Origin: Escherichia phage SerU-LTIIb
Sequence record: KU052038
Direction: 5' to 3' (one strand)
Length of the DNA stretch: 10,126 nt
Each line of letters opens with the position of its first letter. The stretch's first letter is position 1. A program made the position numbers. Of the stretch, positions 6,101 to 9,100 are shown in pieces.

Positions 6101-9100
6101 CAGAACCACAGCATCTCTTGTGGAAGGTGTTGAGCTAACAAAATACATTTCTGACATTAATAATAACACCGATGGAATGTACGTTGTAAGTTCTACTGGA
6201 GGTGTTTGGCGTATTTCTAGGGCTAAAGACTATCCAGACAATGTTATGACTGCTGAAATGAGGAAGATTGCGATGGCGGCTGTGTTGTCTGGTATGAGAG
6301 TAAATATGTGTGCCAGCCCAGCTAGCAGTCCCAATGTTATTTGGGCCATCGAGTTAGAGGCAGAATAAACCATTATTCTTTGTTCAGTTATTATAATTTT
6401 ACTTTTGCCCCAAAACAGGGGCATTTTCTGTTTATAAAATCAATAGGTGTCGATGATGATATGGAAAGTAAACATTCAACATACTTAATGATGATCGCTC
6501 CCATTTTCATGGGTCCTTTCTGTAATCTGAAACACCGGGGGTCTGGGGACGCGCAAAAACGCTTTATTTATGAAAATTTTCAGGGAAAAAGCAGATCCGT
6601 TCTTCTTCTGGCTAACTTGTTGTTTAATAGAGTTTTCTTGAAAAAAAGAAAGGATCTGGCAGCGGTGATTTTTCGCTGAAAAAAGCGTTTTGAGATCCTT
6701 TCTTCTTTTTGTGAGGAATATGTGTCGTGAAGGTTAACAAAAAGAAACTCGCAGAGATTTTTGAGTGCGATGTCAGAACAATCACTGGCTGGCAAAGTCA
6801 GGGGCTGAGAGTTTTGTCGGGGGGAGGCAAAGGTATCGAGGCCATGTTCAATTCTGCAGAAGCCATTGAGTGGTATGCGCAGCGGGAAAAAGATATCGAA
6901 AACGAAAAGCTCCGCAAAGAACTGGAAGATTTGCGTGCGGCTGCAGAATCAGATTTACAACCCGGCACCATTGACTATGAACGCTACCGGCTCACCAAAG
7001 CACAGGCTGACACACAGGAGCTGAAAAATGCCCGTGAAGAAGGGCTGGTGCTGGAAACGGAATTGTTTACCTTCATTCTGCAACGTGTGGCACAGGAGAT
7101 TTCGGGAATACTTGTACGTGTGCCGCTGACATTACAGCGTAAATAACGATAGCGAAGGACTGGCAGCCACGCCAAAGGCTGTCAAAACCGTCATGGACGA
7201 GACGAAAACAAAAGCGCCACTGGACAGTCCGGCGTTTACTGGTACGCCAACCACACCAACCCCGCCAGATGACGCAGCAGGCACTGAAATAACCAATGCG
7301 GCGTTTGTCCGCAAACTGCTCGCCGCACTGGTTGACTCGTCACCGGAAGCCCTGGACACGCTGAACGAGCTGGCAGCGGCGCTGGGCAATGACCCGAACT
7401 TTGCGACAACGGTTACTAAAGCCCTGGCAGGTAAACAACCGCTGAACGACGTGCTGACGGCAATCAGTGAACTGCCGCAACGGGAAGATAACCTTCTGTG
7501 CTTTAATCAGGACGGAAACGCTTCATTGTCTCCGCTGTCAGAAAAAGCCCGTTCACTGCTGGCACAGTCCACAGTGGAGGCCATGCGCAATGAGCTTGGG
7601 CTGAAAAGCGCAGCGGTAAGGGACATTCAGACAGACATTTACGACCGAACTGAAGGTTGTGTGGCGCTTCCGGGAGCTTTCGGTTATGGCGCATATCCCG
7701 CACAACGTAAGGAGTTTGACAAATACGCGACATCAGCAACATTTGCTTCTTGGGTACAGACCACGCCCCCGGGGCGCTATCTTGTCGTTCAATATGGTGG
7801 CCCAAATTCTAATGACATTATAAAGGGGGTTGTTTTTACCGGAGAGGTAGAGATAAAAATGCTGGAAATAGCGACCCATGAAAACCAAACCAGTCGCGAT
7901 AAATTTGTCATTTTTAATGGGGTTAATCATGACGTGTATTGTTGTGAGGTCAGGGCGAGCAGTACGAACATACGCTGGACATGCCTGAGTCAAAACTTAA
8001 CCGCGATAGATGGTGCGAGATGGCTGTATAACGTAGCTGGCCCGTGGTACGACGTACCATTCAGGGATGTGGCAGTTGGCGGATTAATTCATGCTGTGTA
8101 CCGTGCAGCAAATGCTGGCGAATATACGATAAAACGTGGTGATAACGTGAGCGGCAGTACGCTGACACCCTGTGCTATTACGGTATCGGATGATGGCTCA
8201 GCACGATATATGCTGGATACCAGACGGCACTTTTCGGGGAGCTATGTCTCGCTGGGCAATTGCACCATAGCGACCAGCGATTTTATTTTTGGTCTGTTTG
8301 TGAGAGTTGCCTGATGAATGGGGAAAAAATAAAAGAAATCAAAAACGCCCGCTGGCTGGAGAATGGCGCAATTGACTGTGAAGTGTTGTTTGAGGGGATG
8401 GATGAAGTTGTTCCCTACACGGCCACTCCTGAAGATACCGCCGAAACAGGCCGTAAAGTCTGGCAGGAACTACAAAGCGGCAAATGGGGCGAAATCGCCC
8501 CGTTCACCGTCACGCTGGAACTTATCGCAGCGGCAAAAGCTGCCAAAAAGCGGGAAATCGAGGTGTGGCGTACAGAGCAGGAAGCACTGCCGTTCACGTT
8601 TGAATGGAACGGTCGCACCTGGAACGCTGGCCCCGACACAATGGCCCGTCTTTATCCGGTAGTAATGGCGGCGAAATCCGATACGGCACGAACCACCCTT
8701 ACGTGGGGTGATGCCGATAATCAACAGGTGAAACTGTCAATGCCGGAACTGGAAGAACTGGCGGCAGCAATGGCGCAGGCGCAGCTCGATCGCAATGACG
8801 GGATTTATCAGCGCCAGCGTGAGATGAAGGGTGAACTGAATAATCTGGAGGATTTGCGCTCAATCAGAGAGATGGCGATTAGCAGTAATTAGCGGTCAAT
8901 TCTGGGCTTTTTGATTCTACGTACCCCACCCAGAATTGCGCGTCAATTAGCCCAGAAAAAGGAAGTTACAAATTCACTACGCTGACATGATGAATAGATA
9001 ACCAATATTCCATCAACAGGATGGGCAACAATATTGACTAAAGTGAACCTAAAAGGCTTGGAATATTCTTCTTAAATGTTATGTAGTTTATTGATTTTTC

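Follow-up and report, generated by a model that had tools for sequence, protein, structure and literature searches.

The lambdoid prophage that carries the genes of heat-labile enterotoxin type IIb (LT-IIb), sequenced as Escherichia phage SerU-LTIIb (sequence record KU052038), has at its right-hand side a group of nested inverted repeats that follow immediately on the last annotated prophage gene, and the question raised by this locus is what these repeats represent. The DNA analysed here is a stretch of 10,126 nucleotides, referred to as the window, to which all positions refer. By its RefSeq annotation it contains a lambdoid prophage remnant with the LT-IIb toxin genes at serU, and it is 100% identical to the chromosome of Escherichia coli strain 41 (NZ_CP076285.1; raw beef, Brazil), strain 41 being the source strain of LT-IIb (PMC3252337). 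A preliminary description of the repeats, made from the sequence alone, suggested that they could be recombinase or integrase arm-type sites, or a crossover site left over from a tail-fibre inversion system whose invertase gene is absent. Here we describe a conserved block of about 82 bp, at 8889-8970 on the plus strand, which contains the repeats and which we hold with high confidence to be an orphan, probably inactive right end (attR-type terminus), left within the lambdoid toxin prophage by a transposable phage of Mu-like type. The analysis establishes what the block is, where it ends, how its sites are laid out and the mobile context in which its relatives are found.

Results

The block is conserved and has an exact outer boundary

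Window positions 8880-9045 were used as a query against 5,426 complete E. coli genomes. The first ~90 bases of the query were matched in 681 of these genomes and the remainder in only two. When the window was aligned with nine other copies from different loci, similarity extended from TTAGCGG to ...GAAGTTACA, which ends at window 8970, and beyond ...GTTACA all ten copies run into different DNA. In several genomes this DNA is a truncated host gene, namely fliH in OkiPb01701, araJ in TUM9812 and ytfQ in SA53-3. Further copies are found near yjiK, in the aga region, next to yigF and in a prophage at ompW, loci that are unrelated to one another. The block can also be separated from the DUF4376-domain gene that precedes it in the window, and this in both directions: the lambdoid prophage of TUM1881, with the gene order J-lom-stf-DUF4376, has the gene without the block, and in SA53-3 the block stands directly after the tail-fibre gene without the DUF4376 gene.

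This distribution bears on the suggestion that the block consists of arm-type sites, forming part of attR, to which the tyrosine integrase (or Xis) of the serU lambdoid prophage would bind. The block does lie at the prophage edge, about 200-280 bp from a tRNA-Ser-derived core (9164-9233), and it offers repeated short motifs in mixed orientation. Arm-type sites, however, are confined to phages with a common integrase and att site and lie inside the att homology, neither of which holds for the block. It occurs at at least eight unrelated loci, among them that of the ompW-integrated prophage, and it is the terminus of the complete Mu-like prophages of OkiPb01701 and TUM9812, neither of which has an annotated integrase, while the lambdoid prophage of TUM1881 does without it. 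The homology common to the serU prophages of many strains corresponds to window 9052-9233 and so starts only at 9052. Between the block and this region there are 81 bp in the window, against 229 bp of unrelated DNA in GB089. The integrase arm site was rejected on this distribution and is highly improbable as an identity for the block.

The 81-bp flank between the Mu-type terminus and the serU attR region (8971-9051, no strand assigned) was found only in strain 41 and in SC407. It bears no relation to the 229 bp that occupy the equivalent place in GB089 and is presumably lambdoid right-arm DNA that received the insertion of the Mu-like phage. Within the serU common region, positions 9164-9233 resemble the 3′ half of a tRNA-Ser, beginning at the anticodon stem; no complete tRNA was found there by ARAGORN, and Rfam gave only sub-threshold tRNA-like matches, at 9158-9311. 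The same region holds an inverted repeat (9057-9076 and 9110-9129) and two exact copies of TTGATTTTTC (at 9091 and 9146). For sites of the lambdoid-phage integrase, integration host factor or Xis, these repeats are better candidates than the block at 8889-8970.

The repeats are three sites in a fixed layout

As sequence, the repeats are as they were first described. They lie immediately 3′ of the TAG stop codon of the last prophage gene (8890-8892). The 10-bp repeat CAATTCTGGG (8897-8906) is the exact reverse complement of CCCAGAATTG (8929-8938), 22 nucleotides apart, GTCAATT is present at both 8895 and 8942, and the pairing of CTGGGC (8902) with GCCCAG (8950) extends to 8900-8914 and 8943-8957, which are 87% complementary.

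What underlies them is a motif, ATTCTGGG(C), with the core TTCTGGG and an extended consensus of about AATTCTGGGC-N3-TTTGA, of which three copies are found at each end of the prophages that carry the block as their right terminus. The positions of the cores, counted in nucleotides from the terminus, are identical in three intact prophages. At the left end L1, L2 and L3 are at 18 (18-24), 92 and 143, all directed inward. At the right end R1 is at 18 (18-24) and R2, 22 bp from the R1 core, at 40 (40-46), both inward, with R3 at 69-75 in the inverted orientation. With the L1 and R1 cores both 18-24 nucleotides from their termini, the two ends are in register. The 36.9-kb prophage of OkiPb01701 contains ten exact copies of TTCTGGG, five of which are within 150 bp of an end.

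In the window, where the limits of the sites are approximate, R3 is at 8893-8914 on the plus strand (core 8900-8906), R2 at 8921-8942 on the minus strand (core 8935-8929) and R1, the terminal site, at 8943-8961 on the minus strand (core 8957-8951). They are followed by the terminal sequence GAAGTTACA at 8962-8970 on the plus strand, with its CA-3′ at 8969-8970. R3 agrees with the intact prophages in motif, orientation and position, and 16 of 17 positions are identical to the left-end site L1 (TAGCGATCAATTCTGGG); its core is 65-71 nucleotides from the terminus in the window and 69-75 in the intact prophages, owing to a 4-nucleotide deletion described below. The 10-bp inverted repeat is therefore R3 against R2, which supplies its right arm, the CTGGGC/GCCCAG pair is R3 against R1, which includes GCCCAG and the second GTCAATT, and the GTCAATT copies are site flanks. 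The inverted repeats are nested because R3 is inverted relative to R2 and R1. Judging from their repetition, position and conservation, R1-R3 are predicted to be sites of protein binding, and the CA-3′ would be the point of cleavage and strand transfer.

Taken alone within the window the repeats do not go beyond chance, and their significance is weak. Perfect 10-bp inverted repeats with a loop of up to 60 nucleotides number 0.72 per dinucleotide-shuffled window, with one or more in 43% of shuffles, and the real window has six distinct ones. Of the shuffles, 14.5% contain some 7-mer three times in 62 bp, counting either strand, as the window does with TTCTGGG. The feature is judged to be real because it is conserved with a base-exact outer boundary, not because of these window statistics.

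Since the block begins at the stop codon of the last gene, a transcription terminator or RNA hairpin at the end of the tail-fibre operon has to be considered, in which the R3/R2 fold would stop or stabilise the transcript. On the plus strand the region folds with −23.9 kcal/mol (z = −2.5, 3 of 200 shuffles equally good; z = −1.6 on the minus strand), and in GB089 a single change on both sides of the stem preserves the pairing. The covariation as a whole, however, is not above that of shuffles, 203 of 500 of which reach the observed score, and seven of the ten pairs are invariant. The stem is AT-rich with a 22-nucleotide loop, whereas an intrinsic terminator has a G+C-rich stem, a short loop and a U-run. 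No T-run follows either candidate stem, the second arm of the 10-bp repeat included, and a terminator scan found none at 8893-8970, in keeping with the earlier view that this is not a classic terminator; nor did Rfam give any match in 8893-8970 at E ≤ 1. The separation of the DUF4376 gene and the block in TUM1881 and SA53-3 also argues against it, and a hairpin leaves unexplained the exact CA boundary, the third repeat and the recurrence of the motif at the left end of the prophage. Overall, a terminator or hairpin seems unlikely.

The inverted symmetry and the adjoining tail-fibre genes would also suit a gix, cix or pix crossover site, left over from a serine-invertase tail-fibre switch that has lost its invertase gene, and Mu-family and P1/e14-type phages have such systems. 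Sites of this class (gix/cix/pix/hix) are 26 bp long, with two inverted 12-bp half-sites close to the family consensus and a partner site across an invertible segment, a form that the block does not take. Its best match to the 26-bp gix core of Mu is 13/26, which is the median for random 96-nucleotide pieces of the window. There is no second copy inside the tail-fibre gene, there are no inverted alternative fibre genes, the block flanks no invertible segment, and neither an invertase nor an invertible segment is annotated beside it in OkiPb01701 or TUM9812. The crossover site was rejected by the gix comparison, and its probability is next to nothing. The preliminary description was nevertheless right in general terms, in that the repeats would be recognition DNA for an enzyme that rearranges DNA and that the gene for this enzyme is absent. 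The cognate enzyme, however, would be neither an invertase nor the serU integrase, but a MuA-type DDE transposase from a phage other than the resident lambdoid prophage.

Intact relatives are Mu-like transposable prophages

The prophages of OkiPb01701 (36.9 kb, L006 6629-43523) and TUM9812 (37.3 kb) are inserted in fliH and araJ, respectively, and each has the block as its right terminus. The prophage of SA53-3 interrupts ytfQ, and chbG, eutC and yfcC are among the other insertion sites of the family. The genes of the OkiPb01701 and TUM9812 prophages stand in the order known from Mu, with repressor, ner-like gene, transposase, AAA ATPase, early genes and Mor succeeded by lysis, terminase, gpT head, sheath, tape measure, baseplate, tail fibre and DUF4376 genes. 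The family transposase, of 680 amino acids and represented by WP_042970503.1 of OkiPb01701, has Pfam matches to Mu-transpos_C (7e-17) and HTH_Tnp_Mu_1 (9e-8), with a sub-threshold match to rve, and is 23% identical to MuA across the catalytic core. The AAA ATPase is MuB-like (Pfam AAA_22/TniB). Prophages that have both the transposase and the ATPase and are bounded by such ends are those of OkiPb01701, TUM9812 and Z1323CEC0011.

The ends of the prophages read 5′-TGTGGGG...GTTACA-3′. Direct repeats of 4 bp of target DNA flank four elements, ATTG in OkiPb01701, AAAT in TUM9812, AATT in SA53-3 and AATC in Z1323CEC0011; all four begin with A. When the empty fliH site was rebuilt from the two flanks and a single ATTG, the resulting 236 bp matched intact fliH at 236 of 236 positions, showing that the insertion was precise and the duplication exactly 4 bp.

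The block has the architecture that marks a Mu-type end. It ends in CA-3′, matched by 5′-TG at the other terminus, with unrelated DNA beyond; the complete elements encode a MuA-type transposase and a MuB-type ATPase; insertion sites are unrelated and carry a short target duplication, as seen in the relatives, the left junction of the window copy being gone; and, as a sequence pattern, there is a repeated inward motif with a fixed distance between terminus and terminal site. Phage Mu proper (Muvirus), which has the MuA consensus and a 5-bp duplication, is a different matter, as neither of these is found here.

Z1323CEC0011 represents a diverged member, in which the cores of the left end (L015 276-480) read TTCTGGA and ATCTGGA and those of the right end TTCTGGG. 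Either the last base of the core is non-critical or this element has mixed ends. A member of the family is also present in the reference strain of enteropathogenic E. coli (EPEC), E2348/69 (NC_011601.1 2715935-2719355), where the transposase gene is 98% identical and the left end, 92% identical, overlaps the annotated eutC. In the phage collection the family is represented by prophage fragments only. A DNA search of the collection gave no complete member, only short gene-internal matches (phiP27, Rac-SA53), and two partial matches to the block, in phage 204576 and phiSTEC1575-Stx2k. No record in it has a transposase more than 60% identical to that of this family, the nearest being those of Pseudomonas VW-6B (49%) and of Klebsiella ST405-OXA48phi1.1, Yersinia Tongde and SuMu (40-45%).

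The copy in the window is probably a fossil

The left-end motif is absent from the window, the chromosome of strain 41 has a right end at a single place, and no transposase gene accompanies the window copy. Where intact copies read CCCAGAAAAAAACGCGAAGTTACA, strain 41 and SC407 read CCCAGAAAAAGGAAGTTACA, a loss of four nucleotides between R1 and the CA that places each of the R1-R3 cores 4 nucleotides nearer to the CA than in intact elements. Other lambdoid copies have changed in their own ways, with a 1-nucleotide deletion and altered cores in GB089 and several core changes in O157 PV15-279, and the copies in Mu-like prophages retain both cores and spacing. An active end has a partner left end, a cognate transposase and the native R1-CA spacing. 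The window copy, lacking these, is most likely inert at present.

The block belongs to a tail-fibre module of Mu-like origin

Local blastn confined the Mu-like homology of the window to 7145-8970 on the plus strand, a segment that comprises a tail-fibre fragment, the DUF4376 gene and the right end. Positions 7145-7604 match the tail-fibre gene of the Mu-like prophage in OkiPb01701 at 82.8% identity, and 7595-8970 match the Mu-like prophage of STEC316 at 90.7%. The left neighbour of this segment is a truncated lambdoid terminase small-subunit gene, which abuts the tail-fibre gene fragment at a deletion junction (7143-7145). SC407 has an undeleted version at serU, which runs from the tape measure gene to J-lom-tail fibre (stf)-DUF4376-block, then the same 81 bp, attR and yodB, and its head and tail genes are all missing in strain 41. 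From this intact chimera it follows that strain 41 arose from a like prophage by a deletion from the terminase to the fibre gene.

The block is also housed by the lambdoid prophages of GB089, at serU with its different 229-bp flank, and of O157:H7 PV15-279, at ompW, so that with strain 41/SC407 there are at least three independent junctions. Over 2,295 bp, through the terminus, the module of GB089 (L007 1812-4105) and that of the OkiPb01701 Mu-like prophage (L006 41240-43534) share 97.9% identity, which indicates recent transfer. Proteins described as 'prophage tail fiber N-terminal domain-containing' are annotated in both lambdoid and Mu-like phages.

Of the complete E. coli genomes, 681 (about 12%) have the right end, as against 61 with the left end and 58 with a transposase gene of this family at full length. 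By these counts, with the context inspected individually for a minority of the 681 right ends, there are about ten times as many orphan ends as intact phages.

We propose that a Mu-like phage donated the distal part of a tail-fibre gene, the DUF4376 gene and the right end to a serU lambdoid prophage. The most likely route would begin with transposition into the lambdoid right arm, after which recombination between homologous tail-fibre genes would resolve the left side; the morphogenetic genes would have been lost later in strain 41, by a deletion that reached from the terminase gene into that of the tail fibre. Junctions made by a transposase would be expected to have the form seen here, with the transposon end exact and the adjoining lambdoid DNA different from copy to copy. 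Two records of about 93 kb, LC727881.1 and LC727895.1, from Stx1a- and Stx2c-converting phages, were annotated by their depositors with an 'inserted Bacteriophage Mu-like phage', the transposase of which is 44% identical to that of this family. They show that there is precedent for transposable phages landing in lambdoid toxin prophages.

The remainder of the window

In the RefSeq annotation the genes follow one another in the order methyltransferase, two tRNA pairs, duplicated holin genes, endolysin, two heat-labile enterotoxin type II genes, truncated terminase small-subunit gene, tail-fibre fragment and DUF4376 gene, then the host genes yodB and zinT. The DUF4376-domain gene (8314-8892, plus strand; Pfam PF14301, E = 1.5e-15) is the final annotated prophage gene and, by its position, a tail-fibre accessory gene. 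The enterotoxin genes, for the A subunit at 5219-6010 and the B subunit at 6000-6368, are placed between the lysis genes and the terminase remnant. The tRNA pairs Arg-Gly and Thr-Gly are at 1122-1275 and 3028-3181, each followed by a putative holin gene. Stretches near 2112 and 3824 are almost identical and those near 1574 and 3475 are similar, with the putative holin genes falling in regions of about 2030-2430 and 3740-4130. The late-regulatory and lysis region appears to contain a tandem duplication, since diverged, of about 1.7-1.9 kb.

Discussion

In its native setting the block would act in cis as an assembly site for a MuA-like DDE transposase. The transposase would bind three sites of roughly 22 bp with the core ATTCTGGG(C), R1 and R2 directed inward and R3 inverted, and the spacing would be fixed between R1 and the terminal CA-3′, the point at which the DNA would be cut and joined to the target.

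Several points weigh against this interpretation, or at least against its details. The family is 'Mu-like' by its architecture and by transposase homology and is not close kin of Mu; its site sequence is unlike the MuA consensus and its target duplication is 4 bp compared with the 5 bp of Mu. The transposase sites of this family are predicted from sequence patterns, and the capture route is deduced from the exact terminus together with the depositors' annotation in another family. The compensatory change in the R3/R2 arms of GB089 is compatible with a hairpin. Finally, orphan copies are conserved at 80-90% in hundreds of genomes, which could reflect either recent spread or a retained secondary role.

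The analysis assigns a non-lambdoid origin to the final ~1.8 kb of the LT-IIb prophage, in its right arm, and it sets the ends, site consensus, layout and 4-bp duplication of this E. coli Mu-like family. The terminus can serve as a base-exact marker for the movement of the module into lambdoid prophages of Shiga toxin-producing (STEC), EPEC and enterotoxigenic (ETEC) E. coli, and it flags chimeric prophages that annotation pipelines now treat as one element. We suggest, tentatively and with the balance leaning slightly the other way, that the orphan right ends are the footprint of a recurrent transfer of tail-fibre (host-range) modules to lambdoid prophages, including toxin-converting ones. 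Orphan ends that look intact could also be used by a co-resident family transposase, in one-ended or pseudo-end events that rearrange toxin prophages. As an element the scar is of a known kind, yet it is unexpectedly common in E. coli. No earlier account of these ends, or of an orphan Mu-like end inside a lambdoid prophage, was found in the literature searched, which was limited and so not proof of novelty.

The resemblance to phage Mu is in architecture. Three MuA sites per end are established for Mu (PMC3362531), and its right end, as read from NC_000929, has R1 at 6-27, R2 at 28-50 and R3, inverted, at 56-78. Both systems have terminal 5′-TG...CA-3′ and three transposase sites of roughly 22 bp per end (predicted sites in this family), with R1 a few bp from the terminus, R2 contiguous with it in a 22-bp register and R3 inverted (at about 56-78 nucleotides in Mu), and at the left end a terminal L1 with L2 and L3 75-125 bp further in. 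Both insert into unrelated genes with a short target duplication, and in both the transposase combines Mu-type N-terminal (DNA-binding) and C-terminal domains with an rve core and has an AAA ATPase as its partner. They differ in the site core, which is ATTCTGGGC here and ...CGAAA(A/G) in Mu, with no common motif, in the transposases, which are only 23% identical, and in the duplication, of 4 rather than 5 bp. The right end of this family directly follows the tail-fibre/DUF4376 genes without a G segment, gin or mom, and the window copy, unlike the end of Mu, is an orphan outside any transposable phage.

In other Mu-like phages (the Pseudomonas D3112/B3-type group; Sp18, FluMu and Pnm1), L1-L3 and R1-R3 have been predicted from imperfect repeats and a 5′-TGT terminus (PMC4378225; PMC2628397). 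The same criterion, three imperfect repeats close to each end, served to recognise the sites described here, though in the D3112/B3-type group the spacing is different and it is R1 that is inverted (PMC4378225). As in the case of solo or orphan transposon ends, a single end persists of a mobile element that is otherwise lost. The Mu-like phages inserted in LC727881 and LC727895, in contrast, are whole and come from a different family, with 44% transposase identity, whereas in the lambdoid prophages described here only the last ~1.8-2.3 kb and the terminus are left, fused in frame into the lambdoid side-tail-fibre region, and the orphan form exceeds the intact phage about tenfold.

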